From a virus (Duplodnaviria; Caudoviricetes): DNA of 34,190 nt. The notes beneath the pieces are model-generated. The model saw only the letters and a list, made by a program, of their open reading frames with translations, was not told the origin of the DNA and made no database searches. The stretch covers positions 1 through 34,190 of the IMG/VR virus record IMGVR_UViG_3300033067_000599. One strand, 5' to 3'. How positions within the stretch are numbered: the stretch's first letter is position 1; every line of letters begins with the position of its first letter. Shown here in pieces: positions 1,386 to 33,574 of this stretch. Made by a program: the position numbers and the translations under genes.

Positions 1386-1741
1386 TCACCACCTACCGCA
1401 TTGTCGCACCATACTATGTTGCCGATCTAGTAAAAGACGAAGACACTATCGTACAAACCGCACCAATTCTCAAGTGGGCTATTGGTAAAAGCTGGGAGTT
1501 TGTCCGCGAATACCTTCAGCGCAAAGGGTACACAATCGAACCCGTAATCGACGAAGCAGAAACACGCTTTGCCTTTGAGACTAAGGCAGGCACATTTGTT
1601 GTCTACCACGCAGGAAGCTTCATACAAAAGATCGAATACTTTGACCACGAAGAAGAGAAGATCGAAGTAAAGTTCGACCAACTTCCTGACCATGTGCAAA
1701 TCTTTGTAATCGAAACAATCTTTGAGAACATTGAACTATGA
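1382..1741 (+). CDS. Hypothetical protein
   Basis: ATG at 1382 overlaps the upstream TGA (ATGA), and the stop overlaps the polymerase ATG. Start revised from 1367. Confidence 0.6.
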   Translation: MITTYRIVAPYYVADLVKDEDTIVQTAPILKWAIGKSWEFVREYLQRKGYTIEPVIDEAETRFAFETKAGTFVVYHAGSFIQKIEYFDHEEEKIEVKFDQLPDHVQIFVIETIFENIEL

Positions 1742-4407
1742 TTGTAAAAAATCGCTTTCCCACATTACAATCCCACCTACGTTTAGCAGTTATTGGAGAA
1801 TGTCCAAGCAAAGTCGAATCAGAAGAAGGAGAACCTCTTGTAGGTAAAGTAGGAGACTTTGTAGGTCGACTTCTGTCCCGTTCAGGCATATCCAAGGAAG
1901 CTTGTTTCCTCGGCAACCTTGCACAAGACCGAGCACCGAATGGTGACTTCTCTTCGTTTGATTGGAATGACAATATCGTTCAGAGCGGCCTACTCCAACT
2001 CGACATTGATCTAAAGGCATTCAAACCAAACATCATTCTCGCACTAGGCAACGCACCGTTACACTGGCTCAAGGTTGGAAACGTTGCTCCTAAAAAGGTA
2101 AAGAAAAAGGGTTTGTTTGTTTTCAAATGGCCTTACTCAGTATTCAACTGGCGTGGTTCAATCTTTCAATCACAATATGGAAAAGCGATTTCCACTCTTC
2201 TTCCCGCATACGTTTTACGAGATTACAGCACATCTCCTTTGCTACAGTTTGACATACGAAGAGCAGTATCGGAGGCGAAGACAAATACAATTGTTTTACC
2301 TGAAAGGAAAATTAACGCGTGCCCGTCTTTCTCCGATGTTACTAGCTTTCTACTGGCACTACATGCAAACCCACGTCTTGTTGCAATCGACATCGAGGGC
2401 GGAGTCTACGGCATGTCGTGCATCTCGTTTGCGGACCAAACAAATAACGCAATCATCGTACCCTTCTTCCGCAAGGACGGCACTAGCTACTGGAACCAAG
2501 ACGAGGAAGCCATAATTCTTCGTCTTCTCGCCACTGTTCTGGAGAACCCTGTTGTGCCCAAGGTTCTCCAGAACTCTCTTTATGACCGTTTTGTCCTAGC
2601 ATGGGCATACGGTATACGGGTCTTCGGAACTCAAGACGATACCATGCTAAAGCATTGGGAGAAGTTTTCAGAACTCCCAAAGGACCTTGGAACACAGGCG
2701 TCCATTTATACAATGGAGCCGTATTACAAGCAAGACCGGAAATCGAACTCCGACGACACGTTCTACCGCTATTGTTGTCTCGACAGCGCTGTAACCTACG
2801 AGATCAACAAAGTTCTCGAACCTAAAATTATCGGCTCTCCAAGAGTGCATTATACGTTCAATGTAAACCTTCTCAACGCTCTACTCTACATGGAGTTAAG
2901 AGGCACAGAGTATAATTCTGTCGAAGCAGCACAACGACGAGCTGCCATCAATATAGAACGCTACAAGCTTCAAGCCAAGATTAACACCTTGTCCGGTCGT
3001 GGGCTTACGAAACAAATTACAAGAGACGAACTAAGACGCCTATCCATAGATCGTTTTGTAATGAAAAAGTTCAGAAAACTTGCTGACAAAGTCGACGAGT
3101 CTATGAAAGCTTTTTGCTACACTAGCGACAGCAATACAGCACATGGCAATCTTTCTGACTACGCACAGTATCTTGTCTGTCTCTGCCAACCCAACCCTGA
3201 CCTAGCAACACTAGGTCAAATCGAAGACCTTCTTGGCCTCTCTCTAAACATCGAATCCCACAAGCAATTCACTCAATACCTATATGAAGAACAGTCTCTA
3301 CCCAAACAGTTTGACACCTCAAAAGATCCGCCAACTCTCTCAGCGAATTACGAAGCTTTACTCAACCTATCGAAAAAGACAACCCATCCGGTGCCCAAAG
3401 TGGCTATTGAACTACGTAGCCTACTTACTCGCCAACAAATGCTTTCAATCTCTGCGGATAGAGACGGTCGCATCCGGTGTGGATATAACATTGTCGGCTC
3501 AGAAACAGGACGTGTTACTTGCTATGAAAGCCCGACTGGATCGGGTTACAATCTTCAAACAATCCCTAAGTGCGACCGAGACTTATTCGTGGCTGACGAT
3601 GGTTTTTGGTACTTCCAATGTGATCTCGCTGGAGCTGACGGATGGACAGTGGCAGCATATTGTAAAATGCTTGGTGACTCAAACATGCTTGATGATTACA
3701 TGTTTGGAATCAAGCCTGCTAAAATCATCGCCCTTGCATTACGCGGCACAAAATGCGATTTCTCTAACCGCGAAAGCTTACGGGCTGCTAGCAAAACGGT
3801 CTCGTCTGAAGACTGGGACTACTTTGCTTGCAAACGAATCCAACACGGCACTTCCTACCTCGAAGGAGCAAGAACAACTTGCGAACAAATCTACACTGAC
3901 AGCGAAGGCAAGTTCTACATGGAAGAGAAGGAAGTAAAGAAACTCCAATACTGGCTTAAAGAAGAACGTTACGTTGGCATCCCACGCTGGCACGATTGGG
4001 TTGGGCGAAAGCTTCGAGACAACCCTATGCTGACCGCTGCGTCTGGTCAACAACGAATCTTCTTTGGTCGTCGTGACGAAATCCTACCTAAAGCAGTAGC
4101 GTTTGAACCCCAGGCAAACACAACCTATGCGACAAATCTTGCTATGCAAAATCTCTGGAATGACCCAGAAAATCGGACTACTGGAGAAACTATACCTTTC
4201 CATGTCGAACCTCTTCACCAAGTCCACGATGCACTCAACGGGCAATTTAGAAAAGAAAAAACCGAATGGTCAACTCGTAAGATTAAATCCTGGTTTAATA
4301 ACCCGCTAACCATTGCTGGGCAACAAATCACCATCCCGTATGACGGAGGCTATGGTCGCAACTGGTACGAAGCTGGAAGCGAAGAAAAACGAGTAGGCAA
4401 AATCTAG
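1738..4407 (+). CDS. Family A DNA polymerase with N-terminal UDG (family 4-like) domain and 3'-5' exonuclease
   Basis: UDG-like: IGECPSKVE..EGEPLVGKVG, PNIILALG. ExoI AIDIE, ExoII QNSLYD, ExoIII YCCLD. Polymerase motifs: ETGRV, NLQTIP, A (DLAGAD), B (KRIQHGTSY), C (QVHDA). Confidence 0.93.
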   Translation: MIVKNRFPTLQSHLRLAVIGECPSKVESEEGEPLVGKVGDFVGRLLSRSGISKEACFLGNLAQDRAPNGDFSSFDWNDNIVQSGLLQLDIDLKAFKPNIILALGNAPLHWLKVGNVAPKKVKKKGLFVFKWPYSVFNWRGSIFQSQYGKAISTLLPAYVLRDYSTSPLLQFDIRRAVSEAKTNTIVLPERKINACPSFSDVTSFLLALHANPRLVAIDIEGGVYGMSCISFADQTNNAIIVPFFRKDGTSYWNQDEEAIILRLLATVLENPVVPKVLQNSLYDRFVLAWAYGIRVFGTQDDTMLKHWEKFSELPKDLGTQASIYTMEPYYKQDRKSNSDDTFYRYCCLDSAVTYEINKVLEPKIIGSPRVHYTFNVNLLNALLYMELRGTEYNSVEAAQRRAAINIERYKLQAKINTLSGRGLTKQITRDELRRLSIDRFVMKKFRKLADKVDESMKAFCYTSDSNTAHGNLSDYAQYLVCLCQPNPDLATLGQIEDLLGLSLNIESHKQFTQYLYEEQSLPKQFDTSKDPPTLSANYEALLNLSKKTTHPVPKVAIELRSLLTRQQMLSISADRDGRIRCGYNIVGSETGRVTCYESPTGSGYNLQTIPKCDRDLFVADDGFWYFQCDLAGADGWTVAAYCKMLGDSNMLDDYMFGIKPAKIIALALRGTKCDFSNRESLRAASKTVSSEDWDYFACKRIQHGTSYLEGARTTCEQIYTDSEGKFYMEEKEVKKLQYWLKEERYVGIPRWHDWVGRKLRDNPMLTAASGQQRIFFGRRDEILPKAVAFEPQANTTYATNLAMQNLWNDPENRTTGETIPFHVEPLHQVHDALNGQFRKEKTEWSTRKIKSWFNNPLTIAGQQITIPYDGGYGRNWYEAGSEEKRVGKI

Positions 4408-4411
4408 TGCC

Positions 4412-4426
4412 TTTCAATTATTGAAA
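4412..4426. promoter_or_regulatory. Palindromic element TTTCAATTATTGAAA, copy 1
   Basis: 7-1-7 inverted repeat between the polymerase stop (4407) and the ATG at 4434, followed by AGGA. Confidence 0.65.
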
Positions 4427-12406: not shown

Positions 12407-12421
12407 TTTCAATTATTGAAA
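12407..12421. promoter_or_regulatory. Palindromic element, copy 2
   Basis: TTTCAATTATTGAAA between the TGA at 12423 and the ATG at 12398. Confidence 0.65.
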
Positions 12422-21069: not shown

Positions 21070-21408
21070 TTACCGATAACCATGAACTTCAATACGAGCT
21101 TCAGTTGTGGTTAAATCCGCAGGGTCTCCACGAGAACCATCAGTAGCATTCTCAATGTTTGCGACATAAACCGCTGAACCATCAGAGCTTGGAACGGCAG
21201 GATAAATGAGCGTGTTTGTCACGTCAAGAATCGCTCCACAACTCTCGATCTTGGTAAACCCAAGAGCAGAAGCAGTGATTTTGTTTGCAGCACTACCTTG
21301 ACCAGTCAAGACCAGAGTCAACAATGCACCAACTCGATCTTTCCCGGTTACTCCACCCTCGGACCAAGCACGAACTACTGTTACCGCAGATGCGTCTAGG
21401 TCAGCCAT
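21070..21408 (-). CDS. Probable capsid decoration/cement protein (no signal peptide)
   Basis: 112 aa, beta-rich, downstream of MCP, ends IEVHGYR. Paralog of 21412-21882. Confidence 0.6.
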   Translation of the reverse strand: MADLDASAVTVVRAWSEGGVTGKDRVGALLTLVLTGQGSAANKITASALGFTKIESCGAILDVTNTLIYPAVPSSDGSAVYVANIENATDGSRGDPADLTTTEARIEVHGYR

Positions 21409-21411
21409 AGG

Positions 21412-21882
21412 TTATCGAACTCCTCGCAGGATAAACCGATAAGAGTTACCCAACCCTAGGTTTGTTTGAGAACCAAGCATGCTCTTGTTCGCCCAAGCAC
21501 CTTGACCTAGCAACGGTCCACCAATTGCATTCGTATTCTGAAACGAAAGCAACTGAGAACCGTCAAAGTTGGGTCGAACAAAGACAGGAGTATTATTGCT
21601 TCGCATAAAAACGGTACAGTCGATAATTCGACTAAAACCGAAATTGGAAGCATAAATAGTGTCAACGTCTCCTACCCAAGTTGTATTAGTATTGATGAAG
21701 TTCAACGTTAGGTCTTGTACCACCACAAAACGAAACAGTTCCTGAGAAGGCTCAGTCCACATTACGTTCGTGACAATAGAAGCCCCGTTAGTTGAAAGCA
21801 AGTCACTAAGCAAAAGGGCACCACGAGTAACCCCCGGCAAACACAGGGCCAGGGCCAGCACTAGATTACGAATCATTTTCAT
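21412..21882 (-). CDS. Signal-peptide-bearing paralog of the decoration-like protein
   Basis: ATG lies 1 nt after the MCP stop (TAA C ATG). MKMIRNLVLALALCLPGVTRG/A looks like a Sec signal, and the mature part aligns with 21070-21408. Confidence 0.65.
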   Translation of the reverse strand: MKMIRNLVLALALCLPGVTRGALLLSDLLSTNGASIVTNVMWTEPSQELFRFVVVQDLTLNFINTNTTWVGDVDTIYASNFGFSRIIDCTVFMRSNNTPVFVRPNFDGSQLLSFQNTNAIGGPLLGQGAWANKSMLGSQTNLGLGNSYRFILRGVR

Positions 21883-21883
21883 G

Positions 21884-23269
21884 TTAGGGAGCATAAGACT
21901 GAATGTTCTTGATAAACATGTGGCTCTCTGGATAGCGGAGTTCAAACCCTGCTTCAGTCAGCCATTCGTCACGACGAAAATCATCGCCGTTGTTTTGTCG
22001 ATTCTTCAACAACTGGGTATCGCGACCAGCAAGATAGCGATAGACCAAGTTGTTCACATCAAGGATCAACATGCAGTTACGCAAGTTCGAGTCCTCGTTG
22101 AAAAGAGGATGTGTCTTGTAATACATCGTGCCGAAAGGAGACACGTGTTTCACAACGTCCATCCCGTAGGTGTCCGACATAGGCAGACCAGATTGCAAGA
22201 CCGCCTTGCCCTTGTACATCTGATTCACCACGTTCAACGCACCGTTGCCACAGAAAACGAGCTTCTCGTTGGTCGAGTTGTTCGTCGTACGGAAAGCACG
22301 TTCAACATACCCGTCAAACGTTTTCTCCGTAATTACTCCAGAGGCATTTTCAATAATGCGTTTGTTGTCGTCCGTGTCACCAGTGATCTGTGCAGCAGAT
22401 GCACCGCGGTACTTGATCTCGGCCACACTACCAGCCATTTCCCACTGCTCAAGGAACCAAAGAATACCACCGAAGGTAAACAATGGCAGACCTTGCAGGC
22501 CAGTGGTCTTAGTGCGCGAGTTGAAGAACAAAGCTCGCTCGAATTCAGTCATGTGCTGAATCGAATGCTCTTTCGCTTTGTGCTTGTAAGGACCGGTTTC
22601 GTCGAACTTCAGCGAAGTCTTCAGTGCCGTGCCAGTCAGTGAGAAAGGCGTTCGGAGAATCTGGCAATAGTTGCCGACTGCCAAAGGCAGGTTGAAGTAT
22701 TCCGCAGTAGGCCCAACAGAACCTTGTTCGAAACCTTGGCCAACGATGATTGCGCGGTTACCCACGTTTTCGTTAGTCGTTCCGTTTTGCGGCCGGTTCT
22801 TAATCGTGCTCGAATGCGCAGACAGAGCAATGAACGTCACATACTTTGACGCACCATCAATTTTCTCTGTAATCAAGCCACGAACTTCGGTCGTCCCGGT
22901 CTGATCCGTTGTGTCGATATTACAACGTACGCTAAAAACGTCACCAACCTTCAAAGGAGCAAGGTCGGAAACATACATGCGATACGATGTGTTTCGAGTA
23001 ATAGGAGCCGGGTCGGTGAGAACCGTGCCACTGGTGTCCGTAAACGGTCCTTTGCTTGCACCAGAGGAAGCAGTGGTAGTTGCACGGGCAACATAGCGCT
23101 GTTCGTTCCAGTTAAACTCAGGATCGTTTGTTTCCTCTTCGGGCAGTAGGGACAAAATCCCGAGGAGCGGGGACTTCCCATTCGGATACTGATAGAACAC
23201 CCGACGACGGTTATTCTTATACCGCCATGAGCTGTCCGATTCAGTAGTTACTAGGCCAAGAATAGGCAT
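21884..23269 (-). CDS. Major capsid protein (HK97 fold, SU10/DUF5309-like)
   Basis: 461 aa after the scaffold. PEFNWNE, NYCQILRTPFSLTGT, EFERALFF, GGILWFL and EWLTEAGFELRYPESH motifs. Confidence 0.88.
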   Translation of the reverse strand: MPILGLVTTESDSSWRYKNNRRRVFYQYPNGKSPLLGILSLLPEEETNDPEFNWNEQRYVARATTTASSGASKGPFTDTSGTVLTDPAPITRNTSYRMYVSDLAPLKVGDVFSVRCNIDTTDQTGTTEVRGLITEKIDGASKYVTFIALSAHSSTIKNRPQNGTTNENVGNRAIIVGQGFEQGSVGPTAEYFNLPLAVGNYCQILRTPFSLTGTALKTSLKFDETGPYKHKAKEHSIQHMTEFERALFFNSRTKTTGLQGLPLFTFGGILWFLEQWEMAGSVAEIKYRGASAAQITGDTDDNKRIIENASGVITEKTFDGYVERAFRTTNNSTNEKLVFCGNGALNVVNQMYKGKAVLQSGLPMSDTYGMDVVKHVSPFGTMYYKTHPLFNEDSNLRNCMLILDVNNLVYRYLAGRDTQLLKNRQNNGDDFRRDEWLTEAGFELRYPESHMFIKNIQSYAP

Positions 23270-24159: not shown

Positions 24160-24466
24160 TGTCTACAGGAGTTGTTTCGTTTTGTGCTTCTCGAAGTGAT
24201 TCTACTCTTGCCTTTAGAAGCGTTGTTGGGCGAGAGAGAGCCTTAGCGTGACCGATTGCTTGAAGAAGCACTGGTATGCGTTCTTCTGTCCAATCTGTCT
24301 CGATGATAATTCCCACTGTTTGAAGGAATTCGTCATTTATTGTTTTTAACAGGTCATTGAAAAACACGTTCTCATACAGTGCACTAAAGCCCCGTAGGAG
24401 TAATGAGTTGTCCAAACCCTGTAGGTTGATCTCCGGTTGCTGTGTTGGGCGGTCTTGTGTTTCCAT
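24152..24466 (-). CDS. Small helical protein between portal and scaffold
   Basis: 104 aa, overlapping the portal tail. This position is conserved in podoviruses. Confidence 0.6.
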   Translation of the reverse strand: METQDRPTQQPEINLQGLDNSLLLRGFSALYENVFFNDLLKTINDEFLQTVGIIIETDWTEERIPVLLQAIGHAKALSRPTTLLKARVESLREAQNETTPVDNE

Positions 24467-26351
24467 TTTGTGTTGGTGGACCTTGGCCTAAAATACCAGC
24501 CTTAGCCATACGTTGGTCCTGTTGTTGTTCTTGTGCTGGTTGTCTGAGAGTAAATCTCTCAGGATTCCGAACACCACGCAAGCGCAAGACTTCCAAAAGT
24601 AGCTCTCTCGGGTCCAAGCCAACTGCAATAGCTGCTTGTGGTTGAGAGAGCAAAGCAACAAGGATGTCTTGTAATGCTTGCGCGGTGAAACCCTTTTCGC
24701 TCGGCAACGTGCCATCAAAAACTTCAAAATCAAAATCGCCTTGAATGTCTTGCTTCGTGATCTTAAGAAAAGACGCTCCTTGCATTGCAGGATCGACACC
24801 AACAATGCGAACTACAGTTTCTTGGTCCAATCCGTCTCGGAGATTAGAAAGCATCTTACGGCCAAGTGGCTCAATTGCAGAATTAAAAACGAGCGAGATA
24901 ATAGTTTTCAACCGAGAAGCTGCGCTTGACGTCGCATTACGAGCTTCCTGAGCAGATCGTCTACCTGGGTAGAACTGACCCATGATGTTTTCATTTACAC
25001 CCGTCGTGACTTGGACCAAGTCTTTCAAATACTTCGCGTCATCAAGGTGACGAGTGGTAACGTCTTGAATCGGGAGTTGCTGGATGTATCTCTCAACTCC
25101 TCTTCCGGCAACCGCTGGTTTTAGTTGAATAACGGGAGAACGTTCCCGAATATCCTTCATTTCCACTCCACTAGGATCTACTATGATTTTGTTCGAGATG
25201 ACTTTCCTGACCGAAGTAATTCTCGAATTGATAAACCAAGACAATACGCTCTGTAACTGGTCAATGCTATCAGAAAGGCCGTTATTGACCAAATGGTGAG
25301 CGTCTGGATTATACTCTGCAACATCAAAAGTAAACTGGTTATGAACATAGTTTGCTGGTTCGCATTTTACTACACGAGAGTCGTTAACGTACCAGATGTT
25401 GTATAGTACCGGGTAGGTCTCTGGTCCAAGCGGTTCACTCTCGATCTTATATTCACTAGGAACAATTCTACGTTGAATCTCGGTTAAAACAACAGTGCCA
25501 AGGGATTGTGCTGTGTCTTTACTAATGTCATCACCAGAGCATTTCAAACCACGAATAGTATCTGGACCCATTCGACGCTCTGTTGCAGCGACATCATTGT
25601 TCTTCTTCAGCGGTTTGATATACTTTACACCAGAAATCATCCCGTCTGCTTCCATTTGGCGCAAAGTTGTTATCTGATATTCATCTTCACTTGCAACAAA
25701 TTCACCCTCAGCAAACCGACAAATAGGAAACGACGGGTCAGGGAAGAAACGGTATGGAGAGATGTTAAGAATCTTATTCCCAAGATACTTTGTCTTCCAT
25801 GACGAAACCTCTTGTGCCTGTTGACCACCAAGAGCTATTCCCATAAAGTCTCCTTGCGGAATGGGAATAGACGATTTCACCATCTGCTTCTCTTCGACCC
25901 AGCCAGATTTAAAAATGCCAACACCAAAACGAGCGATGTCAAGAAGGAACTGGTAAAGCTTAGACTCAAAGCGATTGTAATTCAAATCCCGTTGCAACAA
26001 AGCTTCTGCAATACGAGAGGCACCGTGACTTTGTTCATTAACAGCCAAAAGCTCAAAGAATCGTTCCCGCTGCATTAGGACAGACATGCCAAACGTAACG
26101 AACGTTTGTACCTGAGAATAACTAATTGGAACCACCATCTTTTCTGGTTCCTTACGGTCGCGGGCCTTCTTGTCTTCTTGGTCTGCCAAAATCTCACCAC
26201 GATACACTGCGTCTGCGTGGTCCCATTTGCTGTAAAAAGTCGCCATCTTCCTTCTCGAAGATTCGACAAGATTCATACTATCTTGTAAAATCTGCTTATG
26301 AAAAGGAGACTGTTCTTCTTTTGAGAAATCGTTTTTTACTGAGTCGAGCAT
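24384..26351 (-). CDS. Portal protein
   Basis: 655 aa. FGVGIFK, ISPYRFFPDP, GLSDSIDQLQ, VTTGVNENIMG..RRSAQEA and Q-rich tail are typical of P22/SU10-like portals. Confidence 0.88.
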   Translation of the reverse strand: MLDSVKNDFSKEEQSPFHKQILQDSMNLVESSRRKMATFYSKWDHADAVYRGEILADQEDKKARDRKEPEKMVVPISYSQVQTFVTFGMSVLMQRERFFELLAVNEQSHGASRIAEALLQRDLNYNRFESKLYQFLLDIARFGVGIFKSGWVEEKQMVKSSIPIPQGDFMGIALGGQQAQEVSSWKTKYLGNKILNISPYRFFPDPSFPICRFAEGEFVASEDEYQITTLRQMEADGMISGVKYIKPLKKNNDVAATERRMGPDTIRGLKCSGDDISKDTAQSLGTVVLTEIQRRIVPSEYKIESEPLGPETYPVLYNIWYVNDSRVVKCEPANYVHNQFTFDVAEYNPDAHHLVNNGLSDSIDQLQSVLSWFINSRITSVRKVISNKIIVDPSGVEMKDIRERSPVIQLKPAVAGRGVERYIQQLPIQDVTTRHLDDAKYLKDLVQVTTGVNENIMGQFYPGRRSAQEARNATSSAASRLKTIISLVFNSAIEPLGRKMLSNLRDGLDQETVVRIVGVDPAMQGASFLKITKQDIQGDFDFEVFDGTLPSEKGFTAQALQDILVALLSQPQAAIAVGLDPRELLLEVLRLRGVRNPERFTLRQPAQEQQQDQRMAKAGILGQGPPTQNGNTRPPNTATGDQPTGFGQLITPTGL

Positions 26352-26359
26352 ATTGTCTT

Positions 26360-26374
26360 TTTCAATAATTGAAA
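26360..26374. promoter_or_regulatory. Palindromic element, copy 3
   Basis: TTTCAATAATTGAAA between the TGA at 26376 and the portal ATG at 26351. 26355-26379 matches 12402-12426 at 24 of 25 nt. Confidence 0.65.
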
Positions 26375-26375
26375 C

Positions 26376-26585
26376 TCACTTAGCAGCAGCCTCTCGACTC
26401 ATTGTTTGGTCGAGATAAGCGCGAAGAGTTGTGAAAACAGGAATGGTCACGAAGACACCAAAGCGGGTCCAACCCACCCAAGACCATGCTGGGGTTTCGC
26501 TGCTATCAAACGTTTCCAACTGCGTAGCAAGAGCGGTCAGAAGAGAGATAATAAGGTAACAAAAAAGTTTAGTCTTTCCGTTCAT
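26376..26585 (-). CDS. Small two-TM membrane protein, holin candidate
   Basis: 69 aa with two hydrophobic segments and a charged TLRAYLD...K C-terminus. Confidence 0.55.
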   Translation of the reverse strand: MNGKTKLFCYLIISLLTALATQLETFDSSETPAWSWVGWTRFGVFVTIPVFTTLRAYLDQTMSREAAAK

Positions 26586-26947
26586 TACTTAGCAATGGTT
26601 ACATTCACATTCACGATCACGGATACTGCTCCGGTGGAAGCGGTCACATTTGTCGAAAGCTGTGTCAAATCCACAGTCACTGGAGTTGAGAATGCGCAGA
26701 GGTTGGAACTACGAGCACTCTCTCCATTAGAAGAGAAAGCAGTCACCGCATAACATCCTGGAACAACTGGGCCGTAATTAGTCTGAGTTGTCTCACCGAC
26801 CAGAACCCAATTAGTTCCATTTTCGCGGTAAAGTCTATATCCAACCACTTCCGGCTCTGGGTTCTTCCACCAAGCAAAGGTCCACAGATTTGCAGCATCT
26901 GCGTAAATAGCGCCGAGAAGAAACAAAGCAAGGGCAAAATGTTTCAT
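26585..26947 (-). CDS. Secreted fibronectin type III-like protein
   Basis: Signal MKHFALALFLLGAIYADA/ANL. FN3 pattern W..NPEPEVVGYRLY...YAVTAF...GESARS. Confidence 0.7.
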   Translation of the reverse strand: MKHFALALFLLGAIYADAANLWTFAWWKNPEPEVVGYRLYRENGTNWVLVGETTQTNYGPVVPGCYAVTAFSSNGESARSSNLCAFSTPVTVDLTQLSTNVTASTGAVSVIVNVNVTIAK

Positions 26948-27720
26948 GGTTGAATAGGGTATAGGTTGGTCATGTAGCTAAAAAGAGACGCCATGTCCGA
27001 GGCGGGGAGGTTTGTGCCGTAAACAGAGAAAGTGCCGATGTGTCCGTTGAAGAAATTCGCGTTGTTCATCGCTCCCAGCGTCAGGCCATTCAATCCAAAC
27101 AACCCGCAATTTCCAGAGAAAATGGAAACCCCATTACTCACGACAGTCGCCTGCCCGTTATTTGCGGTGATCGCATACGTTGTCCAATTCGTCCGCGCTG
27201 CCCCCCAAGAAACATTGGTCCCCAAAGACAGCCTCACGTAGCCAGAATTCGCATACAAAGACCCGCCCGAGGCGTTGGTCGAACCGATCACAATTTGAGC
27301 CGACGAAGGAACTGCCGCGAAACGCAAGGCGATCATGATAGTCAAAGGCTGCGGAAGAACCACGGAGCAGTTTGTGATGAAATCTGCTGCCTGAAAGGAG
27401 ACAACGTCGTGCCCGTTCCAGACCGTAGAGTAAAACACGGGATAGCGGCTTCCAAAGTTGATCAAATTACCACTAGACCCCAAGCTCGACTTGTTTGCCC
27501 AAGAGACAATGTTGTTGCCATCATTGTAAGTCGCATCGAGGTCATCGGCCTCATACCAAGCCCGAAGCCAAGTGCTGTCCGAAGGCAGCATGGACCCACT
27601 AGCCACTGGCGCATCCACATACAACAGAGCAAGACCCTCAGGCGTGCTCAGTATATCCTGTGATTTGACAGGACTAACGAGAATGAGCCAAGCCAACAAG
27701 AATGTTCGATTGATTTGCAT
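26944..27720 (-). CDS. Secreted ConA/LamG-like lectin-fold protein
   Basis: Signal-like MQINRTFLLAWLILVSPVKS/Q. LRAWYEADDL...VSWANKS...FFNGHIG..SVY...L..Y is a LamG-like pattern. Confidence 0.65.
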   Translation of the reverse strand: MQINRTFLLAWLILVSPVKSQDILSTPEGLALLYVDAPVASGSMLPSDSTWLRAWYEADDLDATYNDGNNIVSWANKSSLGSSGNLINFGSRYPVFYSTVWNGHDVVSFQAADFITNCSVVLPQPLTIMIALRFAAVPSSAQIVIGSTNASGGSLYANSGYVRLSLGTNVSWGAARTNWTTYAITANNGQATVVSNGVSIFSGNCGLFGLNGLTLGAMNNANFFNGHIGTFSVYGTNLPASDMASLFSYMTNLYPIQP

Positions 27721-29068
27721 TACAGAGACCTAACGATTTTACACCAATCTCCAGAATCGACCCGTTTGTCACAATAAATGGATTCACCCAAGAACCACCA
27801 AGCCCCCTCACCCCAAGTACAAAAGCAAGCGTACGATTAGTGGTCACAGTCGCATTAACTACAGAGATTGACATTCTTCCCACAGTATTCGCAGGTGCAT
27901 TAGTGAAAAAGAACACCATCTGAGCATTAGTCAAAGATGGGACTACATAATTCGGATGCTGATTCGTACCTGCTGCGCTAAAGTCAAACATATAGTTGCT
28001 CGCGGTGCCACTCACACCCCAGTTGGTGATGAAAATCTGATTAGTCAACACACCAGTTCCTGAGATGTTCTGTAGAATAGAATTACTCTCCTGCTTGGAC
28101 GCGGTGGTGATTCCCGCCCAATTGTTCAAATTCCCAGTTGTATCAAGAAAGTTTGAACCACCAGCATTTCTCACATTGATGTTTGATCCGCCAATGAGAA
28201 CATTTGTGAAAGTCTTAGACGCCAGACCAGAGATAGTTGTCAAAAAACCATTACTCTCTTGTTTAGACGCTGTGGTAATCGCGCTCCAATTTGTCAAGTC
28301 AGGATCTGCTGGTTGTCTAGTTACGGTCCAATTAGTCACTACTCCAGTATTAGTACTTGGAAGATCCTTCCACTCCCAAACCACATCACCAGATCCAACC
28401 TGTGGAATCTTCCCTTGTTGAGCGCCACTGAGCAGCAGGTTCGGATTAGCTGCAATGTTCGTATCCCATCCAGCCCACTTAGTCAGATTAACGTTTGTTG
28501 GTTGTGCACCATTAAGATTCGTCAACGCCGCTCCATTTGCGATGTTACCGAGAACTGAATTACTCTGTAACTTTCCAGTCAATGAGTTTGTAGGCAAAGC
28601 ACCCCAAGAAGCTTGCCAGACATTCGTGTCTAATTTGAAAGTAATAGAATTACTCCCCAAGCCACCCCATAAAGAATGCCAAGTATTACTATCTAACTTA
28701 GAAGTAAGCGAATTACTTCCAAGCGAACCCCAAGCATTCCACCAAGCGTTCGAGTCAAGTTTCACAGTAATTGCTGTGGTTGCGATCAAACTCCAGTTGG
28801 TGAGATTAAACGTTCCCCACTGCCTCGAATTTGTTCCACCCGCATCTCCCGAACCAGTGAATGTTGCGGGCATGTGGAAGCGAACTGCCCAAACCAGAGT
28901 GGTTCCTTGAATCCAATTCGTGGTCTCAACCACCATATTCGACCCACTAAGAAACGTGCTTTTCAGCCAGTTTGTTGGAGTCACTACTCCGTTCGTTGTA
29001 TTAATGTTCAACGTGGCACTTTGTGCCAAAAATGGGAAAATCAGAAAGATGAAAAAAAGTTTCTTCAT
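27674..29068 (-). CDS. Secreted repetitive tail-fibre-like protein
   Basis: Start revised to ATG 29068 (ATGA overlap). Signal MKKLFFIFLIFPFLAQS/A; 21-aa repeats and QPxDxxLT-type fibre repeats. Confidence 0.65.
   Translation of the reverse strand: MKKLFFIFLIFPFLAQSATLNINTTNGVVTPTNWLKSTFLSGSNMVVETTNWIQGTTLVWAVRFHMPATFTGSGDAGGTNSRQWGTFNLTNWSLIATTAITVKLDSNAWWNAWGSLGSNSLTSKLDSNTWHSLWGGLGSNSITFKLDTNVWQASWGALPTNSLTGKLQSNSVLGNIANGAALTNLNGAQPTNVNLTKWAGWDTNIAANPNLLLSGAQQGKIPQVGSGDVVWEWKDLPSTNTGVVTNWTVTRQPADPDLTNWSAITTASKQESNGFLTTISGLASKTFTNVLIGGSNINVRNAGGSNFLDTTGNLNNWAGITTASKQESNSILQNISGTGVLTNQIFITNWGVSGTASNYMFDFSAAGTNQHPNYVVPSLTNAQMVFFFTNAPANTVGRMSISVVNATVTTNRTLAFVLGVRGLGGSWVNPFIVTNGSILEIGVKSLGLCNANQSNILVGLAHSR
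28559..28768 (-). repeat. 63-nt (21-aa) degenerate tandem repeat, about 3.3 copies
   Basis: TVKLDSNAWWNAWGSLGSNSL / TSKLDSNTWHSLWGGLGSNSI / TFKLDTNVWQASWGALPTNSL / TGKLQSN. Confidence 0.85.
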
Positions 29069-29394
29069 GCAGCTTCCCAAGTAAGTGTAATCGCGCCATT
29101 AACAACAGGCAACGACAAATTATACAACGCTCCGTCTCCACCAAGAATTGGAAGAATACTTGGATACGCCGCAACTGGTTCCCAGTCAAGAGTCACTGTT
29201 CCATCAACAACGGGCATTGTTAGTTTGTACAACTGACCATCTCCACCAACCAAATACGGAGTTATCGCTCCACCACTTCCAGCTATAGAAAGCAAAGAGT
29301 TCATGGCAACAAGCAACTGGCCAACCTGTGACCGTAAAGCATTTACTCTACTGGTCAAAAGTGCCAATTCTTGTGCTGAACTTTGCGTAGCCAT
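29065..29394 (-). CDS. Small protein with N-terminal coiled coil and duplicated C-terminal beta motif
   Basis: GGDGQLYKLTMPVVDGTVTLDWE / GGDGALYNLSLPVVNGAITLTWE, 35-aa period. Confidence 0.65.
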   Translation of the reverse strand: MATQSSAQELALLTSRVNALRSQVGQLLVAMNSLLSIAGSGGAITPYLVGGDGQLYKLTMPVVDGTVTLDWEPVAAYPSILPILGGDGALYNLSLPVVNGAITLTWEAA

Positions 29395-29675
29395 TATTGT
29401 GGTTGGTAAGTCTTTACTGTATCGACACCAGGGATTTGAAGATTGTTTGTTGGATTAAGCGCACGAAAAAATGTGATCCATACTTGCATGTCATGTGTAC
29501 TCCAATCGTTACGAATATGGGACTCCATGATCGCCATACGATCATTTAGTTTTGACATTTCAAGCTTTACTCCTGTGATTGAACCGCCGATGATAAAAGC
29601 TGCGCCAACTATTGCCAGCACCAACCTTAATTGCACCCCGGAGGAATCCCTTATTGGTGTTTCGTTTTCTGGCAT
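29394..29675 (-). CDS. Single-TM membrane protein with coiled coil (lysis/holin-like candidate)
   Basis: LVLAIVGAAFIIGGSI TM segment followed by KLEMSKLNDRMAIME. Confidence 0.55.
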   Translation of the reverse strand: MPENETPIRDSSGVQLRLVLAIVGAAFIIGGSITGVKLEMSKLNDRMAIMESHIRNDWSTHDMQVWITFFRALNPTNNLQIPGVDTVKTYQPQ

Positions 29676-29680
29676 AATTA

Positions 29681-31099
29681 TTATGGTGCTTCGTTAGCTT
29701 CAAACGTGAAGTTAGTATTCGCAGGAGTCCCATTGTCATAATACCTAGTTGTGGGACCAAACGAATAGTTCCTGCCTACTTTCACACCACTGCTAACACC
29801 TAATCCCCAAATGATATACGATCCTGAATCTCCCTGAGCACTATTCATAGCGATCACGCTATTGGTTAAAAGACTTAAAGACAGCAATCTTCCACTGGCA
29901 GGATGTAACGTGCTGGTGTTATTAAAAATATAGAAGTCCGTGCTGTTTACCACGTCAATCAAACCCGAACGAATTCCAATTCCATGATTTCCAGTAATCA
30001 TGGCGTTTTTGGTAGTTGTTATGGAAATTCCAGTGATTGGACCTCGTCCACGATCAATAGTGATAGTATTACCGCTAATAGTCGCATTTGTAGCCGAATA
30101 AACTAAAATCCCAATGTTAGTGGCTCCCACTAGATAGTTATTAACAATCACGACGTTTGTCATTAGACCAAAGTTAATCAACGAACTAGATGGGCTACCA
30201 GCTAAAGGTGTCCCTGGACCTCCACGAAGAAAAGACGCGTCTTGATGAATAAAGTTTCCGGAGACTAGCACAGAACGCACTGTCCTAGAGCTTCCATCGC
30301 AGATACCTTGATACATACAATTCCAAATTGTATTGTTTCGAGCAACACACATGGTTGTGCCAGCACCGGAATTTCCACCAAAAGGCATCGCCCAAAACTC
30401 ACACGACCTAGAGCAACCATCTGTGATATTATTCTCGAATATCCCGACTCCCGCAAAAGCACCTCCATCCCACCCGATTTGAGATGAAATGTTCCCGTAG
30501 TTTCTGAAGTAGTTGTTTCTAACCACAATGCCGTTAGTAGACGGCACGTCGGACGAGTCCAAGACAGCAAAGTTCTGTCCGTCTAAGAACTGGCACTCCT
30601 CCACGGTAAGATACTCCGTAGCGGTCCCGTATTCCAAAGCACCATGAATCGGATAATCTATTGAATGGTTAAAGTTGCTATTGATTCCCTGGAACCGTAT
30701 CCCCTTAATCGTGACTCCAGAAGACCTTGAAACAGAGACACATGTATTCGTGTAATACGCGTCATAGATTGTTGGATTACCAACACCAATCAAGTTGAAG
30801 TTGGTCTTCGCCCAAATATTAATCCAAGTTCCACTGGCTCCCGACGCCCTAAACCTGCGCTTGTTATCATTAGTATACACGCCCGGCATGATCATAACCG
30901 TTTCCCCATTCGTTGCTGCAGCTACCGCGTTGGAAATGCTAAACCAAGCACGATGAATTTTTCCCCTTTCAGCATTAGAGTCTTTTCCCAAAGGAGAAAC
31001 ATACAAGATGTTTGTTCCAGCAACACCTGGTGGCTGAGTCGCATCTTGCGCAAACAACGAGCTTGTGAGGAAAAGAATTGGCAATAGTCGTTTAAACAT
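29681..31099 (-). CDS. Secreted right-handed parallel beta-helix protein (pectin-lyase fold, tailspike/depolymerase-like)
   Basis: Start revised to ATG 31099. Signal MFKRLLPILFLTSSLFA/Q; LYVSPLGKD, ISNAVAAA..GETVMIMPGVY, and repeated V.I.NN/GN rungs. Confidence 0.78.
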   Translation of the reverse strand: MFKRLLPILFLTSSLFAQDATQPPGVAGTNILYVSPLGKDSNAERGKIHRAWFSISNAVAAATNGETVMIMPGVYTNDNKRRFRASGASGTWINIWAKTNFNLIGVGNPTIYDAYYTNTCVSVSRSSGVTIKGIRFQGINSNFNHSIDYPIHGALEYGTATEYLTVEECQFLDGQNFAVLDSSDVPSTNGIVVRNNYFRNYGNISSQIGWDGGAFAGVGIFENNITDGCSRSCEFWAMPFGGNSGAGTTMCVARNNTIWNCMYQGICDGSSRTVRSVLVSGNFIHQDASFLRGGPGTPLAGSPSSSLINFGLMTNVVIVNNYLVGATNIGILVYSATNATISGNTITIDRGRGPITGISITTTKNAMITGNHGIGIRSGLIDVVNSTDFYIFNNTSTLHPASGRLLSLSLLTNSVIAMNSAQGDSGSYIIWGLGVSSGVKVGRNYSFGPTTRYYDNGTPANTNFTFEANEAP

Positions 31100-31418
31100 A
31101 TTGAGCAAGGAAGGTTGCTGTTAGAGCAGAGACCGTGTACGTGTTTCCAGTTGTAGACACGACTACAAAAATCCCATTCTCAAAAAAGATTGGGTAATCG
31201 TAATCTGAGAAATCAAAGTGTTGGCCGTTGAACGCTGAGATTGCGAAAACTGGTTGATCTCCAGCGGAAGGAGTGGTGTCTTTGTCAAACAAAAGAATCT
31301 TGACATCAGAACCACTTTCATTGAATCCGCGAAGACGATACAACGCACCACCTTTATCTTTCACCTGAAAGGTGGCAACAGCCCCAACTGAAGTTTTTTG
31401 TGTTAATGCACCAGGCAT
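31092..31418 (-). CDS. Small beta-sandwich virion protein
   Basis: GALYRLRGFN...ILLFD...PIFFENGIFV pattern common in phage structural modules. No signal peptide. Confidence 0.55.
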   Translation of the reverse strand: MPGALTQKTSVGAVATFQVKDKGGALYRLRGFNESGSDVKILLFDKDTTPSAGDQPVFAISAFNGQHFDFSDYDYPIFFENGIFVVVSTTGNTYTVSALTATFLAQYV

Positions 31419-31420
31419 AA

Positions 31421-32929
31421 TTATTCCTCTATTGTTTCGAGTTCTAGTTCAGGACGTACTATTTCTTCATCAGAAATGGTTTCATACTTTTGTGGCGCAC
31501 AGTCAATCCAACATGGGTTGGAAATCTCTGTGCGATAAAAACACTCCATTGCATGGTCGTCTTTGTCAATGGGCTTGTTCTCTCCTTCTGCCCAAGACCA
31601 ACGACGGATTTCCCACAAGGTTCGTCGAGCAGTTGGACAGAAACGAATTACTGGATGACCGTGAATGTCTCTTTTGGCCAACTCTTGCTTGCAGTGTAAA
31701 ATCCCTTGTGCCAACGCCTTAGTTGCTTTCTCCACAGGGAGACCAGCATTCGCAGCTTCAATCGCCATTGAATTCTTGTCCTCCGGGTCTTCAATAAAAC
31801 CAAGTGGGTCCATCTTGGTCCAGATAGGACGTCGACCGCGAAGGAAAGGTAAGATGCCTTCGATTTTTCTATTCTCGTCACCTTTGATCAAAGTCTCTAT
31901 TCCACAATGCACAAAGATGTCGTGGAAGTAATAACGAACACCAAAAGGAGATACTGTGCTGAACAGCACCATGTGCGGCGTTTGAGGGTGCGGATCAATT
32001 GTGATATAAATTGGCCAGTTGTCTGGAGGTTGGACAAAGTTTTTCCAACCAAGAGGTGGTTCTTTTAAAACATGATCGTTCCAAGAGAATTCTTTGTAGA
32101 TTAAACCGGCAAGATGGAACGGGATGCCGTACAACCGACACTGCTTCTCTTCATCAGTCAATGTGCTTTCAAACTTAGCAATTGCTTCAGGAGATAGGTT
32201 GGGGTTATCGTAGATTGAACCATTGATTGCCCAACAATCTGGTGACATTGCATCACCAGTGTCTTCAGGGAAGAAAAGGTCTGAAATCCAAGGTTCAGCT
32301 AGGGGAGTCAGGGTGAACCATTCGCTACCATGACGGTCGATAAGACCGCGTGTTACTCCAACGTACAAATCTTTCGGGCAAGGTTCATCGAAGTGGATAA
32401 AGTCATAGTCGACAGACTCTGCTGAGTCCTTGTCAGACATGAAAGCTTTAGTCGTGTAAAAGCGGAGGACGCTCTTGTTAGTCAGTTCAACTTTTGAAAC
32501 CACTCCTGAATGGTTGCGGACAGCACGCGCAATCATTGAATCTGGAAGCATGGACCAGAGTTTCCCTTCTGTTCCTGTCCAGACCTCGTCAACCTTTTCC
32601 CAGTTCACGGTCACCACTAGTCCTTTAACTGGTCGCTGTGGTATGCCACCGCGATAGGCTGGGTCTTCGGGTTTCAACCAAGCTCGCTTGCCAATAAGCC
32701 AAGCAACGTCCTCCGCACATCCAAGGTGAGATTTTCCAAAACGGTTACCGGCTCGAACCATTCGACGACGGTAGGAGATGCCAGCAGTGTGGAACATCTC
32801 TTGCTTCTTATGTGGATGGTAAAAAGCAATTCCGTTTTTCTTCATCAGATCAATTTTCTGACGAAGTATTTGTGCCTTACGTGTTCGCAAGGCGACAACT
32901 TGATCTTCTATTGCGAAAGCAGCAGGCAC
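31421..32929 (-). CDS. terL: Terminase large subunit
   Basis: PHKKQ adenine-binding motif, Walker A RAGNRFGKS, Walker B FIHFDE, coupling motif TLTP, nuclease motifs IDPH and DKDDHAM. Confidence 0.93.
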   Translation of the reverse strand: MPAAFAIEDQVVALRTRKAQILRQKIDLMKKNGIAFYHPHKKQEMFHTAGISYRRRMVRAGNRFGKSHLGCAEDVAWLIGKRAWLKPEDPAYRGGIPQRPVKGLVVTVNWEKVDEVWTGTEGKLWSMLPDSMIARAVRNHSGVVSKVELTNKSVLRFYTTKAFMSDKDSAESVDYDFIHFDEPCPKDLYVGVTRGLIDRHGSEWFTLTPLAEPWISDLFFPEDTGDAMSPDCWAINGSIYDNPNLSPEAIAKFESTLTDEEKQCRLYGIPFHLAGLIYKEFSWNDHVLKEPPLGWKNFVQPPDNWPIYITIDPHPQTPHMVLFSTVSPFGVRYYFHDIFVHCGIETLIKGDENRKIEGILPFLRGRRPIWTKMDPLGFIEDPEDKNSMAIEAANAGLPVEKATKALAQGILHCKQELAKRDIHGHPVIRFCPTARRTLWEIRRWSWAEGENKPIDKDDHAMECFYRTEISNPCWIDCAPQKYETISDEEIVRPELELETIEE

Positions 32930-33574
32930 TTAGAACCAGTAAAGTTGAAAGCGGTTAGCTGCGTAAATTTTGGTTCCGGTACCAGCAGTTGTGATGTCGA
33001 TTGCTGTACCTCCGCTTTCCGTAGCGATTTTGATTTCACCAGCACCAGGAGAGACGACGTAGTACCAGGTGTCGGCTAGGATTCCTTCTGGAAGAGTGGT
33101 GGCGGTAAAGCGGACGCGGTCATTTGCCACAAAGGTCACGCCACCAGCGAAGGTGATTTTATCTGTAGCTGGATCGAACGTGCAAGCGGTCCCTGCCGCA
33201 AAAGTGGTGAAAGGCCAGTTAAGATTAACCGTGGCAGGAAGAGAACCTTGTTCAAAACAGACCATGAAGGGGGCGGTCTTGTGAAGCACTAGGCCAACGT
33301 CACCAGAGGTTGGTCCTTTGAAGGTTACATTGTACGTCGCTTCATCGGGTGGTTTGATGATTAGACCGCCTGGTGCTTTGGGAACGGTTGGAAGAGTGAC
33401 TGCATTGTTGCCAGTGGTCAGGTCCCGAGTCTCGATATAGATAGGACTCTTAGAGTTGTCAAGAGTTAGGTCGATAGCGGTTTGCGTATTCAGCACGGTC
33501 AGATAAAGCTGAAGCACGGCTTGGCTAACGCCGGCACCACCGTCTGCTGGAGATATGTCGATTGATGTGGCCAT
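32930..33574 (-). CDS. Two-domain beta-rich virion structural protein
   Basis: C-terminal FVANDRVRF..TTLPEGI...TWYYV...AIDIT.AG.G domain typical of phage appendage proteins. Confidence 0.55.
   Translation of the reverse strand: MATSIDISPADGGAGVSQAVLQLYLTVLNTQTAIDLTLDNSKSPIYIETRDLTTGNNAVTLPTVPKAPGGLIIKPPDEATYNVTFKGPTSGDVGLVLHKTAPFMVCFEQGSLPATVNLNWPFTTFAAGTACTFDPATDKITFAGGVTFVANDRVRFTATTLPEGILADTWYYVVSPGAGEIKIATESGGTAIDITTAGTGTKIYAANRFQLYWF

Follow-up and report, generated by a model that had tools for sequence, protein, structure and literature searches.

Why should the late operon of a tailed phage contain genes that start with export signals, when the assembly of tailed phages is regarded as entirely cytoplasmic? 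The question is raised by a linear virus record of 34,190 bases (IMG/VR IMGVR_UViG_3300033067_000599; Duplodnaviria, Caudoviricetes; completeness estimate 71%), which was analysed over its whole length and is referred to here as the window. Its minus strand carries a podovirus late operon in which a block of genes (26376..31099) stands between the large terminase subunit (TerL) and the portal. A sequence-only reading had proposed that four genes of the block and a fifth gene behind the major capsid protein (MCP) bear Sec leaders, and that the phage thereby exports parts of its virion. Our results support the first part of that proposal well: the products of the five late genes are likely exported to the host periplasm via predicted Sec leaders. 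The block is real, recurrent and unexplained by known systems, and export is strongly indicated by its sequences. What is new here is that the predicted exported proteins share a conserved mark, the dipeptide Thr-Asn (TN). A limited literature search, covering few subscription papers and no supplements, found no paper on a TN motif or on tailed phages that send virion parts through Sec.

Leaders were called with our own n/h/c-region heuristic (basic n-region, hydrophobic h-region, small residues at -3/-1). It is positive for the four block genes, namely the beta-helix, fibre-like, LamG-like and FN3-like (fibronectin type III-like) genes, and for the fifth gene downstream of MCP; all open reading frames and leaders of the four lie on the minus strand where the sequence-only reading had put them. 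Among 491 TerS, TerL, portal, MCP, adaptor, nozzle and tail-fibre proteins of related loci the heuristic made 1 false call. The best 8-residue window in the first 30 residues of the five leaders has a mean hydropathy of 2.5-3.5. True starts directly downstream of the leaders, which could have undone the claim, were not found: Met1 is the sole Met within the first 60 codons of the beta-helix and FN3-like genes, and the next Met is residue 45 in the fibre-like and residue 44 in the LamG-like protein. The fifth gene has alternative starts at 21894 and 21876. Asn and Thr abound in the mature chains (17-25%), which have little charge (8-12%) and no C-terminal anchor. The sole homologues found among 5.8 billion proteins, P0002 for the beta-helix and P0004 for the LamG-like protein (55% identity), both keep a leader, as the earlier reading would predict; no homologue was found for the fifth protein, and no genomic context for P0002, P0004 or the leader-bearing proteins of the jelly-roll family described below. 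A need for disulfides was considered as a reason for export and set aside, since cysteine counts (12 even, 14 odd, 9 none) show no even bias.

Scans with MCP and portal led to 114 related viral loci, of which 58 distinct ones, the window included, contain TerL and a near-full portal. The interval between these genes holds no block in 29 loci, a leaderless block in 17, and leader-bearing, TN-rich genes in 12 (window included). Two loci labelled SP in the portal tree, L103 and L118, are false calls of a relaxed heuristic and do not figure among the 12, and L094 was omitted from the tree for its truncated portal. Eleven of the 12 leader-positive loci fall into one 15-row clade of this quick tree (Shimodaira-Hasegawa-like approximate likelihood ratio test, SH-aLRT, 89), with L050 outside; judged by predicted leaders, the leader-bearing block is a trait of this clade. 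Further genes with leaders are located upstream of TerL and in the tail module. In L063 (12316-16161), two of them (444 aa and TN-rich; 279 aa with LamG) lie within the tail module, with a 423-aa likely nozzle gene on one side and, on the other, a 134-aa gene, possibly the split C-terminal part of the nozzle.

The TN mark was measured against shuffled sequences. Across 42 distinct leader-bearing phage proteins TN occurs 413 times versus 161 in shuffles (2.56x), with NT at 0.85x and N-x-S/T at 1.04x (285 versus 275 expected); in 124 leaderless low-charge proteins TN reaches 1.26x. Within 15 leader-positive loci the enrichment is 2.65x for exported versus 1.10x for core virion proteins, and the five mature proteins of the window contain 46 TN versus 15.4 expected, the maximum in 2000 shuffles being 28. 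The sites are also conserved. All 6/6 TN sites of the LamG-like protein are kept in P0004, and over 9 homologue pairs TN is conserved at 62%, versus 22% for all dipeptides and 8% for NT, which places it top among common dipeptides. Short members of the jelly-roll family have TN at one site in 17/20 leader-bearing versus 4/57 leaderless cases (77 examined; four members were assigned as leader-bearing and one as leaderless by eye), although the leader-bearing members may form one related subfamily, so that these counts are not independent.

For cellular proteins the comparison covered the phylum Verrucomicrobiota. In genome G354, chosen as the best FN3-like match, TN stands at 1.75x in 31 leader-bearing proteins (z 6.7) versus 1.00x in 139 others, and four more genomes, chosen after TN-rich loci had been seen, give a pooled 1.91x versus 1.30x. 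The leader-bearing proteins of G330 (0.98x) and G390 (0.91x) show no enrichment. TN enrichment specific to export was seen in regions of G354, G110, G203, G176 and G323 (L182-L201, L207-L209, L222-L241). By these counts TN is an export-specific mark of some lineages, in a style that we take to be that of Pedosphaerales. A motif selected only in exported proteins resembles a periplasmic modification site, which suggests that TN reflects modification in the host periplasm; our own guess is that the chemistry is likely glycosylation. Canonical N-x-S/T glycosylation was rejected given the unenriched sequon, as was the D-S/T motif (0.92x), which we take to be of Bacteroidetes type. STT3, tried as the TN enzyme, gave 0/5 TN-positive genomes over the cut-off; in genomes that may be incomplete, the search gave 1 weak match in the TN-positive set and 1/5 comparison genomes just over the cut-off. 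Host assignment by prophage was also tried. A genome scan gave 4 loci, two in a Candidatus Udaeobacter metagenome-assembled genome (MAG; 1-2 kb contigs) and two in archaeal and Rickettsiales MAGs, and these are not decisive. The putative host is a TN-marked Verrucomicrobiota lineage.

Where do the predicted exported proteins come from? Three families occur both with and without a leader, which points to phage structural-type genes that gained export rather than to host genes, and descent from such genes is well supported by sequence comparison. One family lies directly after MCP in most relatives, where it is leaderless, 104-129 aa long and sometimes present in 2-3 tandem copies. The window holds both forms side by side, the leaderless gene 21070-21408 adjoining the leader-bearing gene 21412-21882, which a hidden Markov model (HMM) of leaderless members recognizes. 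The family is modelled confidently as a beta-sandwich (predicted local distance difference test, pLDDT, 92), with weak fold matches at best, to a gene transfer agent virion chain (Z 5.3) and a tail-fibre domain (Z 5.1); like capsid decoration proteins, it is small, rich in beta structure, placed directly after MCP and conserved. Tandem sets of two or three family members were noted at L004:6567-7600, L009:7476-8136 and L045:7279-7937, and such arrays suggest hetero-oligomers. The jelly-roll family (5248 representatives, often as the C-terminal domain of longer proteins) supplies the first gene after TerL, which is leaderless in the window and L056 and leader-bearing in L107, L173 and L174; by the heuristic, 22/150 top representatives bear leaders. 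The window's member has BFVD matches to phage proteins with a template modelling (TM) score of up to 0.92, and the family has 0 matches in 401 Verrucomicrobiota genomes versus 3/5 phage controls. Finally, a short N-terminal motif (E 2.9e-4), which we take to be a fibre anchor motif, stands directly after the leader in five proteins (L049, L055, L061, L064) and opens a leaderless protein of L083 at residue 2.

Among leader-bearing proteins of relatives, 4/28 match PHROG tail fibre, spike or depolymerase families at weak E values (1e-6 to 1e-3), and the window's beta-helix protein has the right-handed helix of tailspikes and depolymerases, starting soon after the leader. The expectation that these would not turn out to be ordinary host genes held, as no close host match was found: the beta-helix has weak generic matches only, in 9 of the 401 Verrucomicrobiota genomes (best E 2e-6), and the FN3-like profile matches 72/401. 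Fold searches named no family, and PDB sequence matches to 9m6x Gp10 (E 0.74) and Phi92 gp135 (E 0.086) are not significant.

We propose the following course of events. Fibre-, lectin- and ornament-type proteins would be made from the late operon with predicted Sec leaders, exported to the host periplasm, where the leaders would be cleaved, and modified there at Thr-Asn sites. When lysis breaks the inner membrane, the modified ornaments would attach to the completed virion; the core head, the portal, the nozzle and the two fibre genes of the tail module, all leaderless, would follow the usual cytoplasmic assembly. For the beta-helix, action as a free protein is conceivable even with the others bound. 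Since homologues of ornaments and fibres gained a leader together with a host mark, periplasmic processing of proteins that still serve on the particle is the simplest account. Addition at lysis is feasible, given that other phages have ornaments and spikes able to bind completed virions in vitro. Our confidence that exported, modified ornaments dock on finished virions at lysis is evenly divided. The fuller scheme is put forward more tentatively and may well fail in some part: assembly in two compartments, with a cytoplasmic core and Sec-routed parts that are modified by an undescribed host Thr-Asn system and added at lysis bearing host-like marks, TN marking the acceptors of an as yet unknown protein-modification pathway in a lineage of Verrucomicrobiota.

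Binding was explored by predicting a complex in which the exported paralogue was the partner of MCP and two leaderless paralogues. The score was 0.39 versus 0.01 for the best control, a control with MCP replaced also giving 0.01; the runs agree in at least 61% of contacts, with a partner pLDDT of 51-57. In calibration the mark was reached by 116/157 solved complexes and 2/215 mismatches. The prediction lends weak support to binding of the exported paralogue to the capsid protein.

Several observations weigh against placement on the virion or against the proposed modification. At scores of at most 0.60 the calibration holds only 18/157 solved complexes yet both mismatches, and the job differs from those of the calibration. 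No known ornament clearly matches the post-capsid family, which also has no Foldseek match at E<=0.001, the jelly-roll fold matches are middling only (Z up to 7.2), and none of the four block proteins matches a PHROG tail family. With the block absent in 29/58 loci and leaderless in 17, export is dispensable in the wider family, and block proteins mostly differ from phage to phage, as accessory genes do. Neither an STT3-type enzyme over the cut-off in the 5 TN-positive genomes nor a sequon excess was found to account for TN. Periplasmic parts would meet virions only briefly, at lysis. Of the proposed exported virion parts, export is upheld by the leaders, and the putative place on the virion rests on family membership, gene position and the weak complex prediction.

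The strongest competing explanation is that the proteins are exported and never join the virion, acting free or on the infected cell (digestion of capsule or matrix for escape, superinfection block, cell binding) as domesticated structural genes used like late-expressed morons. The variable and often absent block would suit this, as would the beta-helix, lectin and FN3-like domains, which are at home in cell-surface proteins (hence the FN3-like matches among Verrucomicrobiota), a TN mark that agrees with host exported proteins, and lysis-type genes in the same interval (endolysins in L050, L066, L084 and L085; a holin in L076). However, the genes are coupled into the late operon with no terminator-like match between block and portal, one gene follows MCP next to its own paralogue, two in L063 sit inside the tail module, fibre-type motifs are kept directly after the leader, and the jelly-roll family has no match in the 401 cellular genomes. 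For the set as a whole we consider such action possible though doubtful; for the beta-helix it is the likelier fate. A less probable explanation, which we would be surprised to see upheld, is a separate extracytoplasmic structure, such as fibrous appendages or soluble decoys that soak up antagonists or competing phage receptors instead of joining the producing virion. Several loci have a small jelly-roll gene ahead of long fibre genes, and Ena appendage subunits are among its best fold matches (Z 7.2, 7.1), but such values are usual for common arrangements, virion turret and cement proteins score equally, and the window's jelly-roll gene has no leader. The last alternative, in which the leaders would be membrane anchors or mis-called starts instead of cleaved Sec signals, and TN no more than a bias of beta structure, is very unlikely: the mild TN excess of leaderless low-charge proteins and the normal, leaderless fibre genes of the tail module would fit, but false calls are rare, leaders persist across unrelated families and homologues, and TN goes with the leader both inside one fold and inside one host proteome.

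Docking of exported ornaments at lysis would set the window apart from the systems that it most resembles. T4 Hoc and Soc, Dec of phage L and the P22 tailspike are accessory proteins with Ig-like, jelly-roll or beta-helix folds, able to bind finished particles in vitro; they are leaderless and synthesized and folded in the cytoplasm, whereas those of the window carry leaders. Filamentous phage pIII and pVIII are virion proteins with cleavable leaders, held in the inner membrane by transmembrane anchors until the virion is extruded. The window, in contrast, encodes a terminase, a portal and an HK97-type capsid, and its mature exported chains lack a C-terminal anchor. Exported phage proteins are known among late genes (the lambdoid morons Lom, Bor and HK97 gp15; T4 RI; spanins; SAR, signal-anchor-release, endolysins), but these are single envelope or lysis proteins, and here several homologues of fibres, lectins and ornaments are involved. 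A promoter of their own and action in lysogens are typical of morons. The block's junctions are coupled instead, consensus scans for a promoter or terminator of its own stayed near chance level (a weak test), and no integrase match was found among 96 proteins of two complete relatives.

Modified virions offer another comparison: mycobacteriophage virions are glycosylated, and archaeal viruses are glycosylated by host AglB. Host methylation of a phage tail protein is described in the available part of a further report (PMC13445384). What these cases share with our proposal is that surface proteins of the virion are marked after translation, sometimes by the host; our limited literature search found no tailed phage that routes parts through Sec to a periplasmic modifier, and the window's N-x-S/T is not enriched. 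Phage VP1 (PDB 9in6, 8zkk), with a capsid of the SU10-type family, has a capsid and portal homologous to the window's and is the source of the closest solved head proteins in the PDB sequence comparison; GenBank phages are distant, at an MCP identity of at most 30%. In phage A1002 a jelly-roll cement gene directly follows the capsid gene and paralogous fibre proteins are found on the virion, according to the accessible portion of its description (PMC13730344). That portion reports no export for A1002 or KPP25 and contains 'signal peptide' 0 times (PMC13730344), whereas the window's proteins bear leaders. A1002 gp41, with 33 unresolved N-terminal residues in the same portion (PMC13730344), was tried as a fibre with a cleaved leader and rejected, the size- and order-matched KPP25 protein having none.

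Homologues of virion-surface proteins thus appear to gain export signals repeatedly, together with a dipeptide mark common to the exported proteins of some bacteria. Should they join the virion, this would be a new assembly route in which a phage borrows periplasmic folding or glycosylation; should they not, they would still form a large unrecognized class of exported phage proteins. Independently of the virion, the TN signature predicts a new bacterial protein modification, which can be tested directly, and may serve as a marker for host prediction in uncultured phages.

Table 1. Features of the block, its flanks and the capsid region of the window, with the evidence for each assignment.
Feature	Position	Strand	Evidence
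Terminase large subunit (upstream flank)	31421..32929	-	PHROG 2, E 3e-12
108-aa single jelly-roll, leaderless, first gene after TerL	31092..31418	-	Model pLDDT 96; BFVD
Predicted exported right-handed beta-helix (tailspike/depolymerase-like), 472 aa, 11 TN	29681..31099	-	PF13229, E 3.7e-6; leader; homologue P0002
93-aa protein with one hydrophobic stretch, putatively holin-like by size and place	29394..29675	-	
109-aa leaderless protein with internal duplication, possible fibre partner	29065..29394	-	
Predicted exported fibre-like repeat protein, 464 aa, 21 TN	27674..29068	-	Leader
Predicted exported LamG/concanavalin-like lectin protein, 258 aa, 6 TN	26944..27720	-	PF13385, E 8e-4 (below cut-off)
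Predicted exported small FN3-like protein, 120 aa; leader-bearing family members in related phages	26585..26947	-	
69-aa membrane protein, putatively holin-like by size and place	26376..26585	-	
15-bp palindrome directly upstream of portal	26360..26374	.	
Portal (downstream flank)	24384..26351	-	PF23899, PF16510; PDB 8zkk portal gp5, E 1e-73
SU10-type major capsid protein	21884..23269	-	PF17236, E 1e-27; PDB 9in6, E 9e-40
Predicted exported paralogue of post-capsid family, 5 TN	21412..21882	-	HMM of leaderless members, E 1.7e-10
Leaderless post-capsid family member, likely capsid ornament from place and fold	21070..21408	-	

The late operon runs through TerS, TerL, the block, a P22/SU10-like portal, a scaffold, the SU10-type MCP and an adaptor, and further comprises the two fibre-type genes without leaders and genes for a likely nozzle, a GNAT protein and large proteins with a likely role in ejection; the plus strand encodes DNA polymerase A and a primase. 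From TerL to the last small gene the junctions measure -47 to +5 nt, with 24 nt before the portal, which is consistent with one coupled operon and bears out the translational coupling claimed by the sequence-only reading. The G+C content of the block (0.456) matches that of the genome (0.448). The earlier account of the block's content was right about the four leader genes and passed over two leaderless ones, the jelly-roll gene and the 109-aa gene; no homologue of the latter was found among the fetched loci, and the 93-aa gene has one weak homologue, directly before the portal in L086. Of the domain labels, beta-helix stood, LamG fell below the cut-off, and the fibre-like and FN3-like proteins had no Pfam match, the fibre-like one also no PHROG match; its Atlas look-alikes, all below 0.9, are leads only, and the FN3 label is one that we take from a motif.

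Further genes were noted in related loci. A lipoprotein of ~130 aa and a gene of ~62 aa recur directly before the portal in the leader clade. Between fibre block and portal lie response-regulator or hybrid histidine-kinase genes (L094:6768-8369, L004:144-1607, L065:4673-5422, L061:5593-6024) and a caspase-domain gene (L076:8483-9268). Endolysin-type matches in the TerL-portal interval were found in 3/15 leaderless-block loci and in L050, none being in the main leader clade. No Pfam endolysin was found among 51 and 45 scanned proteins of the complete G405 and G410 (proteins above ~800 aa and reading frames judged spurious omitted; controls 3/3 positive). Loss of endolysin as a trait linked to the leader block was not adopted, the numbers being too small for more than a lead.

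Within the window, a leaderless 214-aa protein (32930-33574) between TerS and TerL has a domain matching PHROG tail-fibre families and occurs in tandem copies in L040. The family A DNA polymerase (1738-4407) is fused to an N-terminal uracil-DNA-glycosylase-like domain, and the N-termini of relatives are similar. A perfect A/T-rich palindrome of 15 bp occurs at 26360-26374, 12407-12421 and 4412-4426, directly upstream of the starts of the portal, a 2142-aa protein and a 111-aa gene after the DNA polymerase. These 3 sites compare with 0.05 matches expected, and none was found in the other fetched loci; the palindrome is possibly an operator or a translational hairpin.

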